Both the position numbers and the translations under genes were made by a program. From Eledone cirrhosa (lineage: Eukaryota): a DNA stretch of 64,000 nt. Below are positions 5,641 to 59,447 of the stretch, in pieces; positions within the stretch are counted from its first letter, which is position 1; each line of letters begins with the position of its first letter. Under the pieces are notes generated by a model, which was given only the letters and a program-made list of their open reading frames with translations, made no database searches and had not been told where the DNA came from. Location of the stretch: contig OZ024742.1 of NCBI GenBank assembly GCA_964016885.1, forward strand, positions 97,092,001-97,156,000. The letters are read 5' to 3'.

Positions 5641-6750
5641 ACATGAACATAGAAATGATGATGATGATGATGAGTCAGTGAATTTCCACAGATAATATGG
5701 CAAAAAATCAGTTAATTTGAATATTGAAAATAAATAACATTAGGATATATAAAGATAGGAAAACATGAGGCATTAGTCAAAGGTGACAGATTTAATGTGA
5801 AGGCTGTGTTTCTCTTGCCAGCAGGGAAAAGAGACATTAAATGATGAGGGTGGTGATGATGATAAGCTGTGTACTTGTTTGTATGAATCAATATGTAACA
5901 ATCCATCAATCAACATGTGAAAGATAAATGAAGACAGGAAGTTGGATTTGCCCCCTCAAAATATTTGTAAGTGATTTCTACTTTTGCAAGACCCTAGAAG
6001 AGAGGCTGATAACAAGAAAAATGTTGATTCTAATGCCTGGGTGTAGAAAGTAACCAGATGTTATCATTACTCTGCATTAATTTGTCAAATGGTGTTTGAC
6101 AACTGCTCTTCCAACTGGAAAGTCAATAAATTTTCTGGATTAATCTCATTTTACTTTTCCTTCTTCCAGCACCTGTGATTGATCCTGAAAAGGCCATCCT
6201 CTATTTAGATCTGGTCACAGAGAGACAAAAATATTAAATATAATTGCAACACTACCAACTACAGTGGGACTGGTCGTGAAAGAATTTCATGCTCCGGTAC
6301 TAAACGTTTAATTTGAAACTTTCCTCACCATATAGCTGATCATTTTCAAGGTCAGATATATATATTTGCACATTGGATGAGGCACAAAGTGAGATAAAAA
6401 TTTACATTCAAAATATTCATAATTGTTGTTTCATCGATGTAGGTTGGATGGTTAATTCACTTCTCAATCATGGTTCAAGCAAAATGTGTGGCATCTTCAG
6501 CAAGTGTCATTAGCATAGCTTCAAGTTAACCCAAATTTGGTGAGAGATAATTAGTAAAGTAAAACTGTTTGGAAGCCAATTAGAAGGATTGTATCTTTAA
6601 TGTAAATGTCCAGCCTTGACACATATTATCATATGCTAATTAACCTTGGGAATTTAATTAAAAGTACAAATAACTCTGGAATACACAACCACTTCCTTAA
6701 ACATTAATCAATGTTAAAGCTCAGCACCAAAACTAACGGAAGATCTATCA

Positions 6751-7823
6751 TCATTACATAACAATTAGCACTCTTCTGACAAGAAGTAGCAACATATATA
6801 TATATCATTACATAACAATTGGCACTCTTCTGACAAGAAGTAGCAACATATATATATATCATTACATAACAATTGGCACTCTTCTGACAAGAAGTAGCAA
6901 CATATATATATATCATTACATAACAATTGGCACTCTTCTGACAAGAAGTAGCAACATATATATATCATTACATAACAATTGACACTCTTCTGACAAGAAG
7001 TAGCAATATATATATATCATTACATAACAATTGGCACTCTTCTGACAAGAAGTAGCAATATATATATATCATTACATAACAATTGGCACTCTTCTGACAA
7101 GAAACAGCAACATATATATATATCATTACATAACAATTGACACTCTTCTGACAAGAAGTAGCAACATATATATATATCATTACATAACAATTGGCACTCT
7201 TCTGACAAGAAGTAGCAACATATATATATATATATCATTACATAACAATTGGCACTCTTCTGACAAGAAGTAGCAACATATATATATCATTACATAACAA
7301 TTGGCACTCTTCTGACAAGAAACAGCAACATATATATATATCATTACATAACAATTGACACTCTTCTGACAAGAAGTAGCAACATATATATATATCATTA
7401 CATAACAATTGGCACTCTTCTGACAAGAAGTAGCAACATATATATATATATCATTACATAACAATTGGCACTCTTCTGACAAGAAGTAGCAACATATATA
7501 TATCATTACATAACAATTGGCACTCTTCTGACAAGAAGTAGCAACATATATATATATCATTACATAACAATTGGCACTCTTCTGACAAGAAGTAGCAACA
7601 TATATATATATATATCATTACATAACAATTGGCACTCTTCTGACAAGAAGTAGCAACATATATATATCATTACATAACAATTGGCACTCTTCTGACAAGA
7701 AGTAGCAATATATATATATCATTACATAACAATTGGCACTCTTCTGACAAGAAGTAGCAACATATATATATCATTACATAACAATTGACACTCTTCTGAC
7801 AAGAAGTAGCAACATATATATAT
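6751..7823. repeat. Minisatellite, 20 copies of a ~54-bp unit (44-bp core + variable (TA)n)
   Basis: Core TCATTACATAACAATTGGCACTCTTCTGACAAGAAGTAGCAACA counted 20 times. Confidence 0.97.
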
Positions 7824-8026
7824 GGCATTAGGAAAGGCATGAAGCAGAAAAGAAGCCAAAATCAGTTCTGTGTTAGCAAAACATGCTCCTCAGTTCTGAT
7901 CTTTCACAAAAGAACAACGCATCCTACACATACTAGCATGGGAAATGGACATTAAGCAATGATGATGATGATATGTATATATATATATATATATACATAC
8001 ACTTACACATATATACAAACACACAT

Positions 8027-10499: not shown

Positions 10500-12178
10500 C
10501 TAAGGCGGGTAAAATTCCCGAGATCGATGGACGAGTTCTCTCCAGCGTTCTCTGTCCCTCATTATCGCTGCCATGTCCTGCGTCACCAACAGACCAGTGT
10601 CTGTCCTTAGGGCATCAACATACGTTAACCTTGGTCTTCCTCTTCTAGTGTGTCCATATAGGGGCTCCCACAGGAGCACTGAGTGCAATGTCAACTCTGG
10701 ATGTCGGTGAGCATGTCCAGCCAACCTCAATCTCCTCTGTGTCACTTTTGAGCTGACTTCTGGGATGCTCCCATACAGCTCTGAGTTTTTCATCCTCAGT
10801 GTATACTGATTAATGTTCAGAGCCATCCTCAGCATTCTCGTGTAGCACCCATCCAACATCTGAGTGAGTCTCTTGGTCAGTGTCCAAGTCTCAGACCCAT
10901 ACAGCAGCCAAGACTCCACTATAGCAATGAAGAGGCGGATTTTCAGGTCTTTACGAAGGTCCGACTTCCACACCGATCTCAATCTGTGGCACGCCGCCCA
11001 GGCTTTGCTCTTCCTCTCAACCACATCATCTTCCGTATTCCAAATCTTTGCTCCCAAATATAGGAAGCCCTCAACCAATTCTAGCGGCTTCCCGCCTACA
11101 TTAGTGATCCCCTCTGGCTTCTCACTCATTCTCTACCAGATATTTTGTTTTAGTCTCATTCATTCTCAGCCCCACACTCATCGACACAGTCTCAACCTCC
11201 CGCATCAAATCCTCTGCCTCCTTCACTGTATTTGTCACCAAAACTGTGTCGTCGGCAAATTCAGCATCCGATACCTTTTTCGCCTTAACTCTCCTGCTCT
11301 GAGCCGGTGCTACAGTAAAGCCAGAGTCCTGGTGTTTCTCCAGTGCAAGGCGCATACAATAGTCCACTATGATGATAAAAAGGTAGGGAGCCAATGTATC
11401 TCCCTGGAGCACTCCAGCCAGTATCTCAAAGAACTCTGTCATCCCATCAGGTGTAATGAATTGGGCTTTGGTGTTGGTGTAGAGCAGTGATATCAGGTCC
11501 ACTATCTTCTTGGGGATTCCATAAGCTTGTAAGATCTTCATCAGGCAGTAACGGTCCCCAGAATCAAAGGCCTTCCTAAAGTCAATGAAAACCATGACCG
11601 CAGGAAGGCACTTTGCTCTAGCTCCCTCTAATATCCTCCTCAGCATCAGGATGTGACTGGTGGTTGATCTTCCCTCTCTGAAGCCATTCTGGTTGTCCCT
11701 GAGCTTCTTCTCCATCTCAGGCTGGATCCTGTCAAGAATCATCCTGTTGAGGGTCTTTGCCACAAGTGACGTCAGTGAGATCCCCCTGTAGTTGTTGGTG
11801 TTTGAGAGACCTCCCTTCTTTGGCACTGGGAGGATGTTACTGATCCTCCACTGATTTGGGGCAACTCCTTTTTCCAGTGCCCGGTTACAGAACCCCAGGA
11901 TGATATCATCAAAATCACACCTCTTCATCACCTCTGATGCCACTCCAACTTCTCCATGAGCCTTGCCCTCCTTGATCCTCTTCTTGGCTCTCTAGAGCTC
12001 CCCCCTGGTGAAGGGCCCTGTCTCAACATCCAGTTCCTCAAACAGCCACCTGATCTCCCCAGTGCTCTGGGCTGTGGAGGGTGGCTCTCCTAGTAGGGTC
12101 CTAAAATGGTCTAGCCATTTCCTCTTCCTATCCTCGAGCCCTGTTCCCTGGATCTGACTCGAACACCTTCTCTTCCTC
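10500..12178 (-). mobile_element. 5'-truncated RTE-clade LINE (reverse transcriptase and C-terminus), one stop and one frameshift
   Basis: ORFs 11992-12207 and 11122-11943 are in the same frame: NYRGISL, QNGFREGRST, FIDFRKAFDS, GVLQGDTLAPYLF, FADD. ORF 10500-11129 gives FLYLG, LLYGSETW, RRLRLAGH, RGRPRLTY. Confidence 0.93.
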
Positions 12179-16590: not shown

Positions 16591-17884
16591 CAGGGTGCGG
16601 AGGATATTTGTTCGCAAGATTACTGTCTAGGAAAAGATAAGACAGTAGTTTTATTTTTTAAGATATATTTATCCTTGGGTCAGTTTGTCTTCATGACTTG
16701 TTCTTTAGATCTCACTCGATAAACCCACCATTGGCTTTGATGACGGCCTCAAGGTGGCCTCGGAACCGGCTACAGGCCTTCGTCACTGTCCCCCGACTTA
16801 GGCCCCTAGAGGCACTAGTGATCCTAGCCTTCAGATCGTCTTTCGTATTGCAGCTAGATCTGTTGGTGTCTCGTTTCACGGCGCCCCACAAAAAGAAGTC
16901 GAGGTGGTTGCAGTCAGGCGAGCTGGGAGGCCAGATGTCAGGTGAAGTGTGGTCGACGAAGTTCTCTGACAGCCAGGCTTGGGTCTTTCGGCTGGTATGG
17001 CAGGGCGCTTAGTCTTGGTTCCACACGCACGGCCTACCTGCTGCTATCTGGTCGATCTAGGGCCTTACTACCTCGCTCAGAACGCAGATGTAGCCATCGG
17101 TGTTCAGCTTGAGACCCTCAGGGAAGAAGTGAGGTGGCATGACGTCACCTTGACTGCTGACGACACTTAAGATCAATGTTGTCGCTGGAAACTTTGTCTG
17201 CATGACTCTGGGCACGTCTTTGGATGAGACAGCGAGTTCTGGGAGTTGATCTTCTGGTCTTGGCAGAGATTTTTCCCGTCGGAGAAAAACCACAGCATGT
17301 CTGGCTCCAGTGGATGTTTCAACTTGTTGATCAGCTTCTTTGCATGCTTCAGTCGCTTTTCTTGCATCGCCTTTGACAGAAATTGTCCTTTCCTCATCTT
17401 GTATGAAATGTAGCGAATGTCTTCATGTACCACCAGCCTAATGAGACTTTCATCCACGCCTTTCTCCCTTGCAATGACATGCATCGACTTTCTAGGTTCA
17501 TTGTTGATGATATCTTGAACTTCAGCGACGGACTCGGGCGTTCTGAAGGCGTTAGATCGCCGATCATCTGTTTTCCTCTCTGATGTTGCTTCGTAGTCGT
17601 ATCCTGAATCTTCCAATTCCTTTCTGACCTTTTCCACCATTCTCCTGCTGACGCTGAGAAAGTCTGAAATTTCCTTATTTGTCCCCCCGGCGCGGATTCC
17701 AAGAAGAACTCCGTGTCTCTTCCACAAATTTGGAGGTTCAAAATTATTCATAATCAATTATTCTGAAAATAAATAATGGAAATATAGTCACTGTTTTTAT
17801 GAAGATAAGAGTGACAATGTAAGTAAAAAAAATTTGCATAAAATTAGCAGTTGAAAATTGCGAACAAATATCGTCCACACCCTG
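16591..17884 (-). mobile_element. Full-length Tc1/mariner-superfamily transposon, DD37D (maT) family, 1294 bp
   Basis: 27-bp TIRs CAGGGTG(C/T)GGA(G/C)GATATTTGTTCGCAA with 2 mismatches; TA on both flanks (16589-16590, 17885-17886). Confidence 0.95.
16712..17751 (-). pseudogene. DD37D transposase, ~345 codons, one frameshift and two in-frame stops
   Basis: WFFSDGK (first D), WNQD*APCH (second D), WPPSSPDCNHLDFFLW (third D). I count 37 residues between the second and third D. Ends GGFIE*. Confidence 0.92.
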
Positions 17885-30589: not shown

Positions 30590-31625
30590 AAGAATCAAAG
30601 AACTGTTCAAAACATTATTGTGCTTACAGCAGGTTTGGATTCTTCGGAGCAATTTATTAATGAATGGACAGTTATATGACCTCCTTTTCAGCCAAGAGAC
30701 ATACCGATACATATGCAAATATTGTGGGTCAACATTCATTACAGAATTTAGAGTGGCAGTACACACTTCGAGATTACATTCATATTAAAAGGTACAATCA
30801 AAAATACAGGTTAAAATACAACATGAAGATAAGCGGTTATATAGTGCAAATGTTATATGTGTGGCAAGCACGTGCGTCTTGTTTATATAGTGTGGCAGAG
30901 AGATACGTGTAGTAGAGGCACTTAGGTAGGTAAACAAGAGTGTTAGGTTGGTTGATCTGGTGGCAAATTCTTTATATGATTGATATAGTCTGTGTGTGGA
31001 GAAATGATATAAGCATTAAAAATAGTGCAAGCATTAAAAATATTAAAAGTATTGGAGATGCATAGCGAAGGGATGGCAAGTACTTCATGTACTTCGACAT
31101 TTTCATGGTCAGGGGAGTGTATTTTTCGATTATATGGCCCTCACATAATCCACGACAATTTGATATTGAGCGTTTGACAATCCAGTTAGAGAATCGTAGT
31201 CTGATGTTCTTTAGTTCAATACGTTTCGTTTCGAGAAACGACATTGAATACCACCCCGAAGTGTGTGTGTGGCTAAGGGGAGTTAATGCATGAGGGGAGG
31301 TAACTCCGGGGTTTCTATACCTAGCTATTGAAATTTGTCTCAATATAGACCCTAATTTCTATGGTTATGCGCAACTTCCAAAAAACTTCTAAAGCATAAA
31401 GTGTTTTAACTATAGAGTAGTTTAATTAAGTTGTGCTGAAGGTGTTCGTATTATTATGGGGAAATAACCCCTATCGTGGGGTGCCACAAATGAATATTAT
31501 AGACGATGAGCGAGGATGCTAAATTAATGATCTCTGTGGTTGTAGTCTACTCATAGGACCAGGCGCGGTGATTCGAGGACCAACTATGGACACGCAAGGA
31601 TACGCACAACAACTTCGACATAACC

Positions 31626-33122
31626 ATGGGATTTAGTGACTCGGCGCAGGTCACTGATTTGGTCGGCCTATACCTTCTCAATGAAATCCATAAGGACCTC
31701 CCTTACCTCAACGGTGGTTTGTACCGCGATGATGCACGTCTACTTATAGAATATAAAAAAATTAATATAGAAAGAACTAGAAAACAATTGCATAAGACAT
31801 TCAAAAACTTTAACCTTAGTATCACCATGGACAAAAACACTAAAAATGTTAACTTCCTAGACGCCACACTATACCTAGACTCAAAAATATATACACCTTT
31901 CCATAAGCCTAACGAAAAACTCATTTACGTAGATACCAAGTCTAATCACTCTAGATCAATATTAAACTCTATCTCTAAGGGGGTGTCCAATAGAATCACT
32001 AGTCTGTCCTATGATGCAAACATATTTAGCAAAAACTCACAATATTACAATCAAGCATTAGCTAGATCCGGCCATAATATAGAAATTGAGTTCCTACCTA
32101 AGAAAACACATAGCTACAACATCATCTCGCACAACATGTCCATGAGGAAACCTAATAATAGGAATAGCAACCACAAGTACACCAAAGCGGAGGGTGCCAC
32201 CGGAAGTAACCATTACCATGGAAACTACTGTGGTGCCTTAGGAAGAAACAACACACCTAACACTAAAAACAAAAATAGAAGAAGAAATAATACATTTTTC
32301 AACCCTCCTTTCAACCTAAATGTCTCCACCAACATACCCAGGGCTTTCTTCTCGCTACTAGATAAAAACTTCCCTCTAGGACACAAGTACCACAACCTTT
32401 TAAACAAAAAAACTATTAAAATCTCATACTCTACGACGCCTAACATAGCATACCACATAGCTAGCAGCAATAAAAGTAAAATTAATTCTTACTTCCAACA
32501 AACAAAATCACAACAGGATGCAAACCTTCTAAATACCTCTGTAGCAAGCAACCATAGTAATGGCAGTAACAATAGAAATAACACTAGTATAAGAAATAAC
32601 ACCGGGGTTGACAACCCGAATGTCCAAAATCCTATAGCTACCACCCAGACTTCTGCACTGCATTATAACCAGCAGACTAACACACAGGATAATTGTAACT
32701 GTAGAGCTAATAGAACCTGCCCTTTAGATAAAAAATGCCTAACCAAGGGTATCATATACTCATGCACCGTCACAACTAGCAACTCTTCAGAAACCTATGT
32801 AGGCTCCACTTCTAACTGCTTCAAAATCAGATATAATTCGCACATCCACTCGTTCAAAAAGCACAGCCTAGCCAACTCCACCTCACTTTCTAGCTACATA
32901 CACTATCTAACAACTAAAAATAAACCATACACACTCAAATGGGAAGTGATAGGCAGCGCGACCTCGTACAAACCACCTAATAAATTTTGTAACCTCTGTA
33001 TACTAGAGACCCACAATATTATCTTCTCCAACCGTAACCTACTTAACAAAAAATCTGAGGTATTTGCAACTTGCCAGCACCGCTTCAGACATTCCTTCCA
33101 AAACTTTAAGCCCAATATATAG
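31626..33122 (+). CDS. PLE polyprotein C-terminal part: RT palm/thumb, Cys linker, GIY-YIG endonuclease (N-terminus lost; the frame begins at ~31575)
   Basis: FDITMG..LVGLYLL..GLYRDD, VNFLD, FNPPF, IKISYS, CNCRANRTCPLDKKC, GIIY..YVGST..FKIRYNSH, CNLC..E..LLNKKSE..CQH; 498 uninterrupted codons. Confidence 0.92.
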   Translation: MGFSDSAQVTDLVGLYLLNEIHKDLPYLNGGLYRDDARLLIEYKKINIERTRKQLHKTFKNFNLSITMDKNTKNVNFLDATLYLDSKIYTPFHKPNEKLIYVDTKSNHSRSILNSISKGVSNRITSLSYDANIFSKNSQYYNQALARSGHNIEIEFLPKKTHSYNIISHNMSMRKPNNRNSNHKYTKAEGATGSNHYHGNYCGALGRNNTPNTKNKNRRRNNTFFNPPFNLNVSTNIPRAFFSLLDKNFPLGHKYHNLLNKKTIKISYSTTPNIAYHIASSNKSKINSYFQQTKSQQDANLLNTSVASNHSNGSNNRNNTSIRNNTGVDNPNVQNPIATTQTSALHYNQQTNTQDNCNCRANRTCPLDKKCLTKGIIYSCTVTTSNSSETYVGSTSNCFKIRYNSHIHSFKKHSLANSTSLSSYIHYLTTKNKPYTLKWEVIGSATSYKPPNKFCNLCILETHNIIFSNRNLLNKKSEVFATCQHRFRHSFQNFKPNI

Positions 33123-37950: not shown

Positions 37951-37953
<3 letters not shown>

Positions 37954-38460
37954 CAACTCACATAATTTTCGGCAGACAGGGAGAGTAGTGAGTTTTGATA
38001 AGTACCAAAAAGTACGAAACAGAGCTGTGAACTTATCTCCCCCTGTCTGCCGAAAATTTAAGTAAGCGACAATGTCGCTACTTTAAAACAATTGCATATA
38101 GTCTTCAAAATATTTTTAATTAAGCATACAGTGTATTGCAAAATACACTATATATACATTCATATATAAATCGCTATTTCAGAGCACCAATTCTAATTAT
38201 CAATTTCTGCTGGGCCGGCGACCGCTTGTAAAATCAGTTCCCGATTGTTACTGGAATTCTATAAGAATCCAACACACATAATTTTCGGCAGATAGGGAGA
38301 GTAGTGAGTTTTGATACGTACCAAAAAGTACGAAACAGAGCTGTCAACTCATCTCCCCCTGTCTGCCGAAAACTTTAGTAAGCGACAATGTCGCTACTTT
38401 GAAACAATAGCGTATAATTACGCAAACAGTGTATTGCAAAATACACTATATATACATTCA
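37951..38460 (+). mobile_element. ~1.6 tandem copies of a 316-bp hammerhead repeat (sister family of the 310-bp array)
   Basis: GGCAGA recurs at 37971 and 38287; HHR motifs at 37989-38035 and 38305-38351; 38100-38243 is homologous to the 310-bp unit; (TA)n on both sides. Confidence 0.85.
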
Positions 38461-38484
38461 TATATATATATGTATATATATATA

Positions 38485-38535
<51 letters not shown>

Positions 38536-39189: not shown

Positions 39190-41672
39190 CCCCCTCTCCC
39201 ACCAGTGACGGCAAATGCCCAAAATTCCGAGTTGGCACCATCAATGTGAGCACAATGAAAAGAAGAGCAGGAGAAATCGTAGATATGTTAGAGCGAAAGG
39301 AAATTGATACATACTGTGTGAAAGAGACTAGATGGAGAGGAGAGTCTGTTAGAGTACTTGAAGGCAAAAATCAGTGATACAAACTTTTCTGGGTGGGAAA
39401 TGACAACGGTTTGGATGGTGTAGGTATACTATTAACTACCAAATTGGTAGATCAGCTGATCTCAGTGAACAGTGTGAATGCAAAAATCATTAAACTTAGA
39501 CTAATCCCGAATAAAATAGTTTCTACAATTATATCAGCTTACACACCCCAAGCTGGGTTGCCAGACGAACTTAAGGATAGGTTTTATGAGTCCTTAATGC
39601 ACGCTACTACCCTAACAAACAACAATGACTTCCTAATCATTGCAGGAGTCTTTAACGGCCATGTTGCAAAACACAGTGACAGCGTCTATAGAGTCCATGG
39701 AGGCCACGGGTTTGGCACAAGAAACGAAAAATGCTTCAGGCTTCTAGAATTCTGTGACGCCAATGACATGTCGATATGTAACACAAACTTCACAAATACC
39801 GACAACCACCTGATCAACCCTAGATCAGGGGAGCATTCTAGTCAGATACATTTTATCCTTATCAGAGGACGAGATAGATGGATGGTTGTAAACACAAACA
39901 CCTTCTCTGGTGAGGAATGTACCTGCGACCTCTTTGTCAGAACTAGAGGAACATGGAAACAAAAGGCAACTTGGAGAAGAAAGATCTGGTTGCTGAAAGA
40001 CTCCTCAGCCAGTAACAGATTTAAAGATATCTTACGCGACGCCTATGACAGTAAAGAAGAACAGGAGTTCCTAAAATATAACTTGCTAAAGGCGACTAAC
40101 GAGATCTGTTGTTGGAGAAGGAGAGTGACTTGGTGGAGGAACAAAAGGTAGCGAGGCAATTAAGGCTAAGAGACAGGCATGGAAATAATGGAAGAATGGG
40201 GGAAGCAGGGTACATTACATAGAGATCAGGAGGGAAGCTAGGCGATAAGTATACTTAGCTAGAAGGGAAGCAAGAATTTTTTGCAGCATGAGGACCACAA
40301 ATAGGAGGTGTTCAGAATTGCAAGGCAGTGTGTTAGAAAAAATTGTTATGTCATTGGAGAGAAGTTTGTCCGAGATGATAAAGGTGATCTTGCCCTCACA
40401 AGTCCCGAGAAGAAAGCTGCTTGGAAGAGTCATTATGAAAGATTACTGAATGAGGAGAATGCATGGGAGAAAAAGACTCTACACCAAGTGGGCTTTATAG
40501 AGGCCCAGTAATACAAGTCTGCAGCAGTATAGTAAGTAAAGCAATTAAGGATATGAAGACTGGGAAAGCAGTCTGTCCATCTGGTATAGCTGCCGAGATT
40601 CTGAAAGCATCTGGGTCGGTAGGTCACACCATAACCACACGTATTGTTAAAAAAGTAATACTAGTGGGCATCATACCAAATGATTGGCACAACAGCATCA
40701 TTGTCAACTGCTACAAGGGTAAAGGAGATGCACTAGATAGAGGAAAATATAGAGGTATAAAGCTGGTGGACCAGGTCATGAAAGTAACGGAAAGAGTTAT
40801 AGTACAGCTGATTAGGGACAGGGTAAATCTAGATGAGATGCAGCTTGGGTTAGTGCCAGGCAAAAGCACCACTGATGCTCTCTTTCTTGTGAGGCAGTTA
40901 CAGGAAAAGTACCTAGCTAAAAGTAAGCCACTCTACCTAGAATTTGTGGATCTGGAAAAAGCCTTCAACAGAGTGCCCCGTGCCATAATCTGGTGGGTTC
41001 AAAGAAAACTAGGAGTAGATGAATGGCTTGTGAAAGCAGTACAAGCCATGTACAGTTAGGGTTAACAATAAATATAGTGAGGAATTTAGAGTATATGTCA
41101 GTGTCCATCAGGGCTCTGTTCATAGCCCTTTCCTGTTTCTTATTGTAAACAGAGAAGTTTAAGACTGGATGCCCATGGGAACTTCTGTACGTGGATGATG
41201 TTACACTTATAGCTGAATCTATGGTAGAACTAGAGAAGAAATTCCAAATATGGAAGCAGGGGTCTCAAAGTCAACCTGACAAAGACTAGGGTCCTCATAA
41301 GTAGATGAGTAAACTGAATCCAGATCCCCTCAGAGAAACGACCTTGCTCAGTATGTAGGAAACGTGTCGGTAGAAATTCCATCCTCTGCCCCAAATGCAA
41401 ACTATGGGTATACAAGAGATGTGGTGAGATCTCAGGAATATTTGTTAAGAACGCAGCCTTTACATGTAGCAGTTGCACCAAGACAGTAAGCAGCAAACGG
41501 CCACAGGAAACACACACCACCAAATTCTGGGCGGGCTCTGTAGAGACAGTAGACAGCTTCTGCTACCTAGGTGACTGAATTAGCAGCGGAGGTGCATGTT
41601 CTGAAAGTACAGTAACTAGGGTAAGTATGGGATGGAAGAAGTTCAAGAAGATACCACCTTTACTAACTGCAG
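39190..41672 (+). mobile_element. Decayed RTE LINE: APE endonuclease, RT and PHD-like finger; 3'-truncated
   Basis: VGTINVSTM..VKETRWRG, ISAYTPQ, GVFNGHV (APE); YRGIKL, FVDLEKAFNRVP, ELLYVDD (RT); many stops and frameshifts. Confidence 0.93.
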
Positions 41673-42016: not shown

Positions 42017-42070
<54 letters not shown>

Positions 42071-42190
42071 TATAGACATAGAATATTCGAAAATATTCTG
42101 TATGTTTATAATAAACATTTTGAAGACCTAATCGCTATAGAATAGAATACGTCACGTATTACAATTAGATTCTCGATAAAAGCAAGGGAA

Positions 42191-42233
42191 GTAATCTACG
42201 CGTTTCATTCTAGTTAGAAATCATCAGGACTAC
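42191..42233 (-). ncRNA. Type I hammerhead ribozyme, first of 9 minus-strand copies spaced 310 bp
   Basis: Reverse complement of GTAGTC-CTGATGA-TTTCTAACTAGAAT-GAAA-CGCG-TA^GATTAC. Confidence 0.88.
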
Positions 42234-45066
42234 ATATCCAGTGCTTTTATCGAGAATGACACAGCTAGAGACTTATAGAATACTTAGCTGTGTACAGGAA
42301 CTGGTTTGAAAGAGCGGTTGCCGGTCCGGCAGAAATTAGAAATTGGAATAAATGCTCTGAAATAGCGATATATATGTGAATATAGACATAGAATATTCGA
42401 AAATATTCTGTATGTTTATAATAAACATTTTGAAGACCTAATCGCTATAGAATAGAATACGTCACGTATTACAATTAGATTCTCGATAAAAGCAAGGGAA
42501 GTAATCTACGCGTTTCATTCTAGTTAGAAATCATCAGGACTACATATCCAGTGCTTTTATCGAGAATGACACAGCTAGAGACTTATAGAATACTTAGCTG
42601 TGTACAGGAACTGGTTTGAAAGAGCGGTTGCCGGTCCGGCAGAAATTAGAAATTGGAATAAATGCTCTGAAATAGCGATATATATGTGAATATAGACATA
42701 GAATATTCGAAAATATTCTGTATGTTTATAATAAACATTTTGAAGACCTAATCGCTATAGAATAGAATACGTCACGTATTACAATTAGATTCTCGATAAA
42801 AGCAAGGGAAGTAATCTACGCGTTTCATTCTAGTTAGAAATCATCAGGACTACATATCCAGTGCTTTTATCGAGAATGACACAGCTAGAGACTTATAGAA
42901 TACTTAGCTGTGTACAGGAACTGGTTTGAAAGAGCGGTTGCCGGTCCGGCAGAAATTAGAAATTGGAATAAATGCTCTGAAATAGCGATATATATGTGAA
43001 TATAGACATAGAATATTCGAAAATATTCTGTATGTTTATAATAAACATTTTGAAGACCTAATCGCTATAGAATAGAATACGTCACGTATTACAATTAGAT
43101 TCTCGATAAAAGCAAGGGAAGTAATCTACGCGTTTCATTCTAGTTAGAAATCATCAGGACTACATATCCAGTGCTTTTATCGAGAATGACACAGCTAGAG
43201 ACTTATAGAATACTTAGCTGTGTACAGGAACTGGTTTGAAAGAGCGGTTGCCGGTCCGGCAGAAATTAGAAATTGGAATAAATGCTCTGAAATAGCGATA
43301 TATATGTGAATATAGACATAGAATATTCGAAAATATTCTGTATGTTTATAATAAACATTTTGAAGACCTAATCGCTATAGAATAGAATACGTCACGTATT
43401 ACAATTAGATTCTCGATAAAAGCAAGGGAAGTAATCTACGCGTTTCATTCTAGTTAGAAATCATCAGGACTACATATCCAGTGCTTTTATCGAGAATGAC
43501 ACAGCTAGAGACTTATAGAATACTTAGCTGTGTACAGGAACTGGTTTGAAAGAGCGGTTGCCGGTCCGGCAGAAATTAGAAATTGGAATAAATGCTCTGA
43601 AATAGCGATATATATGTGAATATAGACATAGAATATTCGAAAATATTCTGTATGTTTATAATAAACATTTTGAAGACCTAATCGCTATAGAATAGAATAC
43701 GTCACGTATTACAATTAGATTCTCGATAAAAGCAAGGGAAGTAATCTACGCGTTTCATTCTAGTTAGAAATCATCAGGACTACATATCCAGTGCTTTTAT
43801 CGAGAATGACACAGCTAGAGACTTATAGAATACTTAGCTGTGTACAGGAACTGGTTTGAAAGAGCGGTTGCCGGTCCGGCAGAAATTAGAAATTGGAATA
43901 AATGCTCTGAAATAGCGATATATATGTGAATATAGACATAGAATATTCGAAAATATTCTGTATGTTTATAATAAACATTTTGAAGACCTAATCGCTATAG
44001 AATAGAATACGTCACGTATTACAATTAGATTCTCGATAAAAGCAAGGGAAGTAATCTACGCGTTTCATTCTAGTTAGAAATCATCAGGACTACATATCCA
44101 GTGCTTTTATCGAGAATGACACAGCTAGAGACTTATAGAATACTTAGCTGTGTACAGGAACTGGTTTGAAAGAGCGGTTGCCGGTCCGGCAGAAATTAGA
44201 AATTGGAATAAATGCTCTGAAATAGCGATATATATGTGAATATAGACATAGAATATTCGAAAATATTCTGTATGTTTATAATAAACATTTTGAAGACCTA
44301 ATCGCTATAGAATAGAATACGTCACGTATTACAATTAGATTCTCGATAAAAGCAAGGGAAGTAATCTACGCGTTTCATTCTAGTTAGAAATCATCAGGAC
44401 TACATATCCAGTGCTTTTATCGAGAATGACACAGCTAGAGACTTATAGAATACTTAGCTGTGTACAGGAACTGGTTTGAAAGAGCGGTTGCCGGTCCGGC
44501 AGAAATTAGAAATTGGAATAAATGCTCTGAAATAGCGATATATATGTGAATATAGACATAGAATATTCGAAAATATTCTGTATGTTTATAATAAACATTT
44601 TGAAGACCTAATCGCTATAGAATAGAATACGTCACGTATTACAATTAGATTCTCGATAAAAGCAAGGGAAGTAATCTACGCGTTTTATTCTAGTTAGAAA
44701 TCATCAGGACTACATATCCAGTGCTTTTATCGAGAATGACACAGCTAGAGACTTATATAGTCCTGATGATTTCTAACTAGAATGAAACGCGTAGATTACT
44801 TCCCTTGCTTTTATCGAGAATCTAATTGTAATACGTGACGTATTCTATTCTATAGCGATTAGGTCTTCAAAATGTTTATTATAAACATACAGAATATTTT
44901 CGAATATTCTATGTCTATATTCACATATATATCGCTATTTCAGAGCATTTATTCCAATTTCTAATTTCTGCCGGACCGGCAACCGCTCTTTCAAACCAGT
45001 TCCTGTACACAGCTAAGTATTCTATAAGTCTCTAGCTGTGTCATTCTCGATAAAAGCACTGGATAT

Positions 45067-45109
45067 GTAGTCCTGATGATTTCTAACTAGAATGAAACGC
45101 GTAGATTAC
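45067..45109 (+). ncRNA. Type I hammerhead ribozyme, one of 4 plus-strand copies (44758, 45067, 45377, 45687)
   Basis: Helix I GTAGTC/GATTAC, core CTGATGA and GAAA, helix II TTCT-AACT-AGAA, palindromic helix III ACGCGT; predicted cleavage after GUA at 45103. Confidence 0.88.
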
Positions 45110-45882
45110 TTCCCTTGCTTTTATCGAGAATCTAATTGTAATACGTGACGTATTCTATTCTATAGCGATTAGGTCTTCAAAATGTTTATTATAAACATAC
45201 AGAATATTTTCGAATATTCTATGTCTACATTCACATATATATCGCTATTTCAGAGCATTTATTCCAATTTCTAATTTCTGCCGGACCGGCAACCGCTCTT
45301 TCAAACCAGTTCCTGTACACAGCTAAGTATTCTATAAGTCTCTAGCTGTGTCATTCTCGATAAAAGCACTGGATATGTAGTCCTGATGATTTCTAACTAG
45401 AATGAAACGCGTAGATTACTTCCCTTGCTTTTATCGAGAATCTAATTGTAATACGTGACGTATTCTATTCTATAGCGATTAGGTCTTCAAAATGTTTATT
45501 ATAAACATACAGAATATTTTCGAATATTCTATGTCTATATTCACATATATATCGCTATTTCAGAGCATTTATTCCAATTTCTAATTTCTGCCGGACCGGC
45601 AACCGCTCTTTCAAACCAGTTCCTGTACACAGCTAAGTATTCTATAAGTCTCTAGCTGTGTCATTCTCGATAAAAGCACTGGATATGTAGTCCTGATGAT
45701 TTCTAACTAGAATGAAACGCGTAGATTACTTCCCTTGCTTTTATCGAGAATCTAATTGTAATACGTGACGTATTCTATTCTATAGCGATTAGGTCTTCAA
45801 AATGTTTATTATAAACATACAGAATATTTTCGAATATTCTATGTCTATATTCACATATATATCGCTATTTCAGAGCATTTAT

Positions 45883-45956
<74 letters not shown>

Positions 45957-59002: not shown

Positions 59003-59440
59003 TAAAATAAAGTAAAATAAATAAGTAAAATGTTTAAAATTTAGCTTCGTTTATTACTGCTATATATATTTCGATGACAGCCATCTTTGGCTGTCACCTC
59101 TTCAGGCAGTCCGAATTAGTGTGGTATAGACAAGTACATATGTTGTTGAGGTGTATAATTTTGTCAATACTCTGATATACCCAGTTCCTGGTTGGATTGT
59201 TATTTCACTGAGGAACTGAAATCATATGATTCCAGTTCCTCAGTGAAATAACAATCCAACCAGGAACTGGGTATATCAGAGTATTGACAAAATTATACAC
59301 CTCAACAACATATGTACTTGTCTATACCACACTAATTCGGACTGCCTGAAGAGGTCACAGCCAAAGATGGCTGTCACCGAAATATATATAGCAGTAATAA
59401 ACGAAGCTAAAGTTTAAACATTTGACTTTTTATTTTACTT

Positions 59441-59447
<7 letters not shown>
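59003..59447. mobile_element. Spacerless palindrome (~222-bp arms) carrying two hammerhead motifs
   Basis: Centre ATCAT|ATGAT (59225/59226). HHR on plus 59341-59395: ACTGC-CTGAAGA-long helix II-GAAA-TATATA-TA^GCAGT. HHR on minus 59056-59110. Confidence 0.9.

Follow-up and report, generated by a model that had tools for sequence, protein, structure and literature searches.

The window analysed here is a 64,000-nt stretch of the Eledone cirrhosa genome (contig OZ024742.1, forward strand, positions 97,092,001 to 97,156,000), and at 42067..45888 it carries two arrays of a 310-bp, hammerhead-bearing unit inserted in a TA microsatellite. The arrays are best explained as one insertion of a young non-LTR (long terminal repeat) retrozyme, in which an enzyme of the Penelope-like element (PLE) type would have copied a predicted 310-nt RNA circle from both cut strands of the target; we put the probability of this reading at roughly two in three. 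Retrozymes of this kind are already known; the part for which no published description was found is the two-armed, fixed-end footprint, known here from its sequence. A preliminary description of the window had proposed a very young retrotransposed concatemer of the hammerhead unit instead of an ordinary satellite, a proposal upheld by the dispersal of the family, its fixed ends and haplotypes that are uniform within loci.

The same description saw a single tandem array. Its limits, 42067 and 45888, and its period of 310 bp (99% matches in Tandem Repeats Finder) stand, but the array is in fact two inverted arms, reverse complements of each other arranged head-to-head. Also missed were the (TA)n target, the two fixed 3' ends, which point to a PLE enzyme, and the other insertions of the family, about two thousand in all. 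Tandem Repeats Finder itself reports two 310-bp arrays, 42058-44757 and 44754-45888, flanked by (AT)n runs. With unit positions counted from the predicted cut site, the locus is composed as follows:

42032..42066, left part of the (AT)n target microsatellite
42067..44757, minus strand, left arm, 8.7 units with nine hammerhead cores
44671..44713, minus strand, hammerhead copy whose core is mutated, G>A at window 44686 (GAAA>AAAA)
44757..44758, head-to-head centre junction, blunt, unit position 230 joined to 275
44758..45888, plus strand, right arm, 3.65 units
45067..45109, plus strand, one complete type I hammerhead by direct reading, predicted cut after UA (45103)
45104..45413, plus strand, one full unit bounded by two predicted cut sites, 310 nt with 34.5% GC; as RNA it would be the monomer or circle
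45854..45888, plus strand, the 35-nt 'tail' that separates the two fixed ends (unit positions 131-165), found at one insertion end only
45889..45954, right part of the (AT)n target microsatellite

The RNA-sense 3' end of the left arm abuts the left flank at unit position 130 (the short, or 'A', end) and its 5' end lies at the centre at position 230; the right arm begins at the centre at position 275 and has its RNA-sense 3' end at position 165 (the long, or 'B', end). The RNA 5' ends thus meet at the centre and both RNA 3' ends face the flanks, as priming from both nicked strands gives. Leaving the ends aside, the arms depart from one reference unit at two positions only. Cuts are predicted after 44677 (the mutant copy), 44367, 44057, 43747, 43437, 43127, 42817, 42507 and 42197 in the left arm (minus strand), and after 44793, 45103, 45413 and 45723 in the right arm (plus strand).

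The type I motif at 45067..45109 consists of a 6-bp helix I, CUGAUGA, a 4-bp helix II with a U-U mismatch at its base, GAAA, and the palindromic ACGCGU of helix III, itself a 2-bp palindromic helix; helix I runs on into a 16-bp stem. Thirteen complete hammerheads had been claimed, and thirteen cores are indeed counted, though not all are complete: one is mutated, and another, copy 13, is 5'-clipped where it opens the right arm at 44758 and is without the 5' side of the long stem. The core is intact in 12 of the 13 copies, and a 13-mer spanning stem I and core has 12 matches at the locus (9 on the minus strand, 3 on the plus strand). The GAAA base altered at window 44686 is a conserved base of the hammerhead core, and the copy at 44671..44713 is predicted to be inactive, judged from the hammerhead consensus. 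An Rfam scan, proposed earlier as a check, finds no family in the window at gathering score and only a weak match to Hammerhead_HH9 (16 bits, E 0.54), so that the hammerhead call rests on direct reading of core and stem together with covariation (below). Recurrent variants in the hammerhead, at unit positions 2, 277, 284, 287, 294 and 295, fall in loops or preserve pairs on direct reading.

ViennaRNA supports the extended helix I with pair probabilities of 0.85-1.0 for its 6 bp and 0.95 for the 16-bp stem. Seven further pairings had been listed; five of them have mean pair probabilities of 0.76-0.98, and two are weaker, ATGTTTA/TAAACAT (0.42) and ATAGCGAT/ATCGCTAT (0.57), the latter a long-range pairing and no hairpin. 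The circle folds better than all of 150 dinucleotide shuffles (z -4.5), the outcome that the preliminary description expected; the antisense strand likewise beats its shuffles (z -4.3), so the fold score cannot tell which strand matters. Helix III could form a 6-bp intermolecular duplex of -9.5 kcal/mol. The unit is without an open reading frame (ORF), as had been stated: in the tetramer, the longest stop-free frame is 59 aa and the longest ATG frame 30 aa. Searches of the unit yielded no antisense hammerhead core and, with a simple pattern, no RNA polymerase III B-box. Given the missing antisense core and nothing that points to RNA-to-RNA replication, the earlier label 'viroid-like' is not retained; unlike hammerhead viroids, which have ribozymes in both polarities and no DNA copy, the unit has a predicted ribozyme of one polarity only and 13,231 genomic cores.

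As far as its features predict, the unit is a metazoan non-LTR retrozyme, agreeing with the account of these elements in the available text of PMC7229834 on every point open to testing. There they are described as tandem 150-450-bp units with a type I hammerhead and less than 50% GC, lying beside PLEs; the 310-bp unit shares with the retrozymes treated in that text and in the accessible parts of 10.64898/2026.07.22.740005 its size, type I hammerhead, GC content below 50%, lack of an ORF, strong self-pairing, a weak helix suited to dimeric cleavage, and PLEs beside it. The U-U mismatch at the base of helix II recurs in axolotl Rtz_353/HHR_Amex2, as far as its published description was available. 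Unlike published retrozymes, for which cleavage and circles have been demonstrated, the unit is known here from sequence alone, and its arrays come in head-to-head pairs within (TA)n, their 3' ends lying at two fixed internal positions. The words 'inverted', 'inversion', 'microsatellite' and 'cephalopod' do not occur in the main text of PMC7229834, whose supplement may list related species; the paired inverted arrangement is absent from the accessible parts of 10.64898/2026.07.22.740005; the available text of the Octopus vulgaris repeat annotation (PMC13282606) mentions neither ribozyme nor retrozyme; and literature searches turned up no paper on inverted retrozyme arrays or on a cephalopod retrozyme.

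The footprint recurs throughout the 3.0-Gb genome. Exact searching with a slightly degenerate pattern of the core gives 13,231 matches genome-wide (reversed control, 0), from which hand arithmetic gives about 4.1 Mb of family sequence; a similar estimate from pairing rates gives about 1,700-2,100 loci. In a first set of 24 loci, made up of the window locus and the 23 best-matching loci (top BLAST hits), 20 are two-armed and head-to-head, and 23 lie in (TA)n-type repeats, the exception being L038, in AT-rich non-microsatellite DNA. In all 20 two-armed loci, the end of one arm falls within unit positions 124-139 and that of the other within 158-172. Since these loci were top BLAST hits, the end rule was retested on position lists. 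Genome-wide, 1,250 short-end and 1,312 long-end (TA)n junctions are found, with none in the reversed-pattern controls. On the first 217.8 Mb of contig C1, where 100 short and 96 long ends are listed, all 63 divergent pairs closer than 20 kb join a short to a long end (30 AB, 33 BA, 0 AA, 0 BB), with the short end at unit position 130/139 and the long end at 165/167, within 165-172, in every pair; 5 more close pairs on this stretch are not divergent. That every pair has one end of each kind suggests a complex whose two subunits each take a different site on a single RNA.

The insertions delimited by the C1 pairs have a median span of 2.5 kb, the longest being 14.9 kb. In published retrozymes a target-site duplication, when there is one, is longer than 4 bp; with (TA)n on both flanks, none can be resolved here. 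The centre was located in 34 of 39 loci: the arms overlap by 1-6 nt in 19 and by 16 nt in one, are joined bluntly in 4, and are separated by 1-5 extra bases in 10. Arm 5' ends are scattered, and just 1 of 68 falls within 5 nt of the cut site, which argues that the arrays were not built from cut linear monomers. Snap-back joining was considered and rejected as too weakly supported: near-perfect palindromic centres are in slight excess, 8 of 34 lying within 15 nt, with p 0.017 for a threshold chosen post hoc and a Kolmogorov-Smirnov p of 0.29.

Assemblies have trouble with palindromes, and the inversion could in principle be an artefact of fold-back reads; yet the two flanks differ, the arms stop at two different fixed sites, the centres vary between loci, and ends joined to TA, at unit positions 139 and 170, also occur among the short-read contigs of run X1 (where the centre joint of the locus is not seen). 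Alternatively, the unit could be an exogenous viroid-like RNA replicon that is occasionally integrated, as the presence of the unit with 0-2 differences in runs under three other organism codes might suggest, although it has no hammerhead on the antisense strand and an older, resident sister family is present (below). Together, artefact and replicon are very improbable explanations. The three runs, X4, X5 and X6, come from separate studies and each contain, over window 44700-45110, one closed 340-nt unit contig with 0-2 differences and no flanks. A relabelled host, contamination or wider spread are possible sources. These closed loops are not taken as circular RNA, since an identical contig would arise from tandem DNA and the records of the runs do not give their kind; a look for expression listed no RNA data set with the unit.

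The footprint matches traits known from PLEs. In the parts consulted of PMC8557442 and PMC3846280, endonuclease-positive (EN+) PLEs are recognised by copies that are inverted and 5'-truncated, by a tail of 30-40 bp at one end and by a (TA)n bias. According to the available text of PMC11167929, a PLE purified from Anolis sequence can cut AT-rich DNA on both strands and extend both, with reverse transcription (RT) starting at two internal RNA sites which bound the tail. For the head-to-head ends, self-priming on an antisense template has been proposed (PMC3846280, in part). The 310-bp insertions share with the Hydra clade (PMC8557442) and Poseidon PAc (PMC11167929), as described in the accessible sections of both papers, head-to-head 5'-truncated inverted copies, a 30-40-nt tail at one end, AT-rich or (TA)n targets, and a hammerhead upstream of two internal starts. 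They differ from EN+ PLEs in that the unit has no RT or endonuclease ORF and in that a closed 310-nt permutation runs over many laps, versus a partial tandem of a 3-6-kb element. In L1 twin priming, two cDNAs are primed and a head-to-head 5' inversion is joined at short microhomology. The proposed copying shares with that process the two primed cDNAs, the head-to-head inversion and the junction at short microhomology; unlike L1, the 310-bp family has no poly(A), and it would prime at two different sites, each fixed, internal and used once in an insertion.

A candidate source of the ribozyme is at hand. Among 10,597 first-look GIY-YIG candidates in the genome, 150 were scored. A 25-mer nearly identical to the hammerhead core (9,826 exact matches) lies in the terminal repeat of a young PLE family; RWR, DKT and CxCX5C motifs in its ORF match the Hydra description in the available text of PMC8557442. 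This PLE is placed in the Hydra clade by motifs, with no tree, and two Hydra-type proteins have no match in Pfam. Many of the 73 scored Hydra-type copies keep open frames of about 758 aa, and five copies share 96.3-99.1% nucleotide identity. The terminal repeat and the unit have 26 of 28 nt of the hammerhead core in common, and Hydra-type insertions too lie head-to-head in (TA)n, one of their ends being short and the other long. This PLE could plausibly have donated the ribozyme and may mobilise the unit. Sampled terminal repeats of a handful of PLE families include none with the conserved module of unit positions 59-235, no ORF joining RT and GIY-YIG lies in the array, and a hidden Markov model of the two retrozyme families, run over L066-L130 and the window, returned further retrozyme insertions only. 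Hydra-type copies (L123, L124, L131-L135) are often short head-to-head terminal palindromes. Within the window, a 516-aa open frame at 31572-33122 (plus strand) looks like the half with RT thumb and endonuclease in a second family of Hydra-type PLEs, with no match in Pfam, and a long head-to-head palindrome at about 59040-59445, with hammerhead-like motifs at 59105 (minus) and 59346 (plus) and (TA)n at its right, is probably formed by the inverted termini of another PLE family.

The nature of the template is judged from the units. Across 382 full units from 39 loci (the 24 above and 15 from the position lists, most of these taken for having both ends listed), the mean number of differences per unit is 0.57 within an arm, 0.42 between opposite arms and 3.05 between loci; low difference across both arms and high difference between loci are expected if each array came from one RNA circle. 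Variants confined to a single unit number 0.57 per kb. Relative to the window unit, 22 loci have locus-wide variants, which form 15 distinct haplotypes, several of them private to one locus and found in both arms; examples are 35T, in 14/14 laps of L048, and 20G, in 17/17 of L050. A new mutation that fills an array needs a one-unit bottleneck and then repeated copying, and a circle provides both. We infer a circular template, which is well supported by these comparisons and is favoured, not proven.

Such arrays could also have grown at the DNA level, by slippage or unequal exchange in the manner of minisatellites, from short PLE-type insertions of one or two units. Local amplification after insertion is favoured by Li et al. 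in the accessible parts of 10.64898/2026.07.22.740005, and in L145 and L136 a few variants are found again in adjacent units. Against this, both arms are multimeric and share private variants, and opposite arms are as alike as the units of one arm (0.42 vs 0.57); the period is one unit throughout, and 0.57 single-unit variants per kb leaves little time at about two thousand loci. Later expansion is accordingly improbable.

Under the favoured reading, in which a circle is copied from both strands, the arrays would be transcribed, and the hammerhead, likely acting as a dimer through its palindromic helix III, would release monomers to be ligated into circles. A PLE RT/GIY-YIG dimer would bind the RNA and nick (TA)n on both strands; priming would use two internal sites, unit position 130/139 for one strand and 165-172 for the other, each cDNA would go 0.5 to 27 laps, and the two cDNA ends would be joined with little or no microhomology. 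Circle copying by a PLE has been proposed for animal retrozymes by Cervera and de la Pena, without test, in the available text of PMC7229834, and PLE dependence is supported by co-occurrence and phylogeny in the accessible parts of Li et al. 2026 (10.64898/2026.07.22.740005); as far as these texts go, both leave the mechanism open. We give even odds to the fuller statement that the insertions record germ-line rolling-circle RT of a ribozyme-made circle, with a PLE dimer that primes both strands at two fixed, non-equivalent sites and occasionally jumps circles, the unit being perhaps a chimera of a PLE-loading module and an exchangeable, PLE-derived hammerhead.

Several observations weigh against one circle copied by one PLE dimer. 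Four of the 24 first loci are single-armed, and 70 of the 196 listed ends have no partner that matches the exact patterns. Helices II and III are barely predicted by ViennaRNA (pair probabilities 0.1 and 0.0), 8 of 9 predicted Xenopus retrozyme dimers stayed uncleaved in vitro (10.64898/2026.07.22.740005, accessible parts), and in the available account of the Anolis PLE in vitro cleavage is dispensable and unprocessed RNA is the main template (PMC11167929). The tail of the Hydra-type PLE is about 68 nt vs 26-42 for the retrozyme unit, and outside the hammerhead its repeat aligns to the unit no better than shuffles (77 vs a mean of 78; 29 vs a mean of 38); it is therefore no more than a candidate partner. 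Not all arrays are uniform, either: variants are scattered in L038 (3/4 units) and L046 (3/12) and are repeated in two units each in L136 and L145, and haplotypes change within two loci:

L146, G000:C1:136718500-136727000, both arms begin in one haplotype and the long arm continues for 15 units in another
L042, G000:C3:282880800-282889800, haplotype change within an arm, near the centre

Such arrays need template switching or later exchange at the DNA level, and the pattern in L146 also fits a chimeric linear donor. The switches in L146 and L042 are candidate template switches between two RNA molecules within one insertion.

Some of these points would be accommodated if a PLE-type enzyme primed at two sites on a linear, uncleaved, multimeric transcript, the hammerhead being weak or dispensable and the uniformity coming from uniform donors and gene conversion. 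Such a template accounts for the end rule equally well and agrees with the weakness of helices II and III, with the dispensability of cleavage for a PLE in vitro and with L146. Linear copying, however, leaves a one-unit mutation in one unit, and 15 locus-wide haplotypes common to both arms are hard to make in this way; none of the single-unit variants in the 11 loci with unit-by-unit listings turns up again on the other arm at an equal distance from the 3' end; and 5' truncation would shorten the arrays over generations, yet one arm of L136 has at least 26 full units. We therefore regard a linear template as unlikely.

Copying of a circle from both strands, if true, would show how animal retrozymes move and would make the inverted ends and tails of PLEs the outcome of an obligatory one-site-per-strand reaction; the strict short/long pairing bears on how PLE head-to-head ends arise. 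With this family the mechanism can be put to the test: the RNA and the target DNA are specified, both start sites are placed to within a few bases, enzymes with open frames stand as candidates, and statistics can draw on about two thousand recent insertions. A natural target-primed RT that copies a small circle repeatedly from both ends of a break would also be of interest to genome-writing.

A sister family, whose motif was first seen in a public contig, has 104 matches to one 23-mer (at most 1 mismatch). Its units, 317-322 bp and about 90% identical between loci, share 62% identity with the 310-bp unit overall and about 76% over positions 59-235, and the family is the older of the two. Its hammerhead differs from that of the 310-bp unit and has a palindromic helix III too; several of 12 sister loci terminate at the same two positions as the 310-bp family. 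When the long stem is projected on 13 sister units, 196 of 207 cells are paired and 97 are changed on both sides, with slid controls at 75-107, and the 98-117 hairpin has 99 of 104 cells paired; the 13 copies being related, this covariation amounts to one lineage contrast. The fold, as predicted, and the start sites have outlasted the sequence, and by this comparison the structure is under selection.

The core of the sister hammerhead reads UUGAUAA in most sampled copies (e.g., L094, L095) and CUGAGGA in L097. Hammerhead positions 3 and 8 pair, and the difference is a swap of U3:A8 for C3:G8 that would keep the 3-8 pair. A double change that restores hammerhead activity (3-8 rescue) is described in the available text of PMC11167929. 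One sister insertion, about 1.7 units in a single orientation between (TA)n runs, lies in the window at 37953-38500 (plus strand), 3.6 kb from the two-armed array, with a hammerhead-like core UUGAUAA.

Elsewhere in the window, 10500-11991 (minus), 17057-17757 (minus) and 39378-41650 (plus) hold what we take, from their translations, to be decayed LINE-like RT/endonuclease frames and a mariner-like transposase fragment, and at 6750-7830 a 52-54-bp unit with a variable (AT) stretch is repeated about 20 times in tandem.

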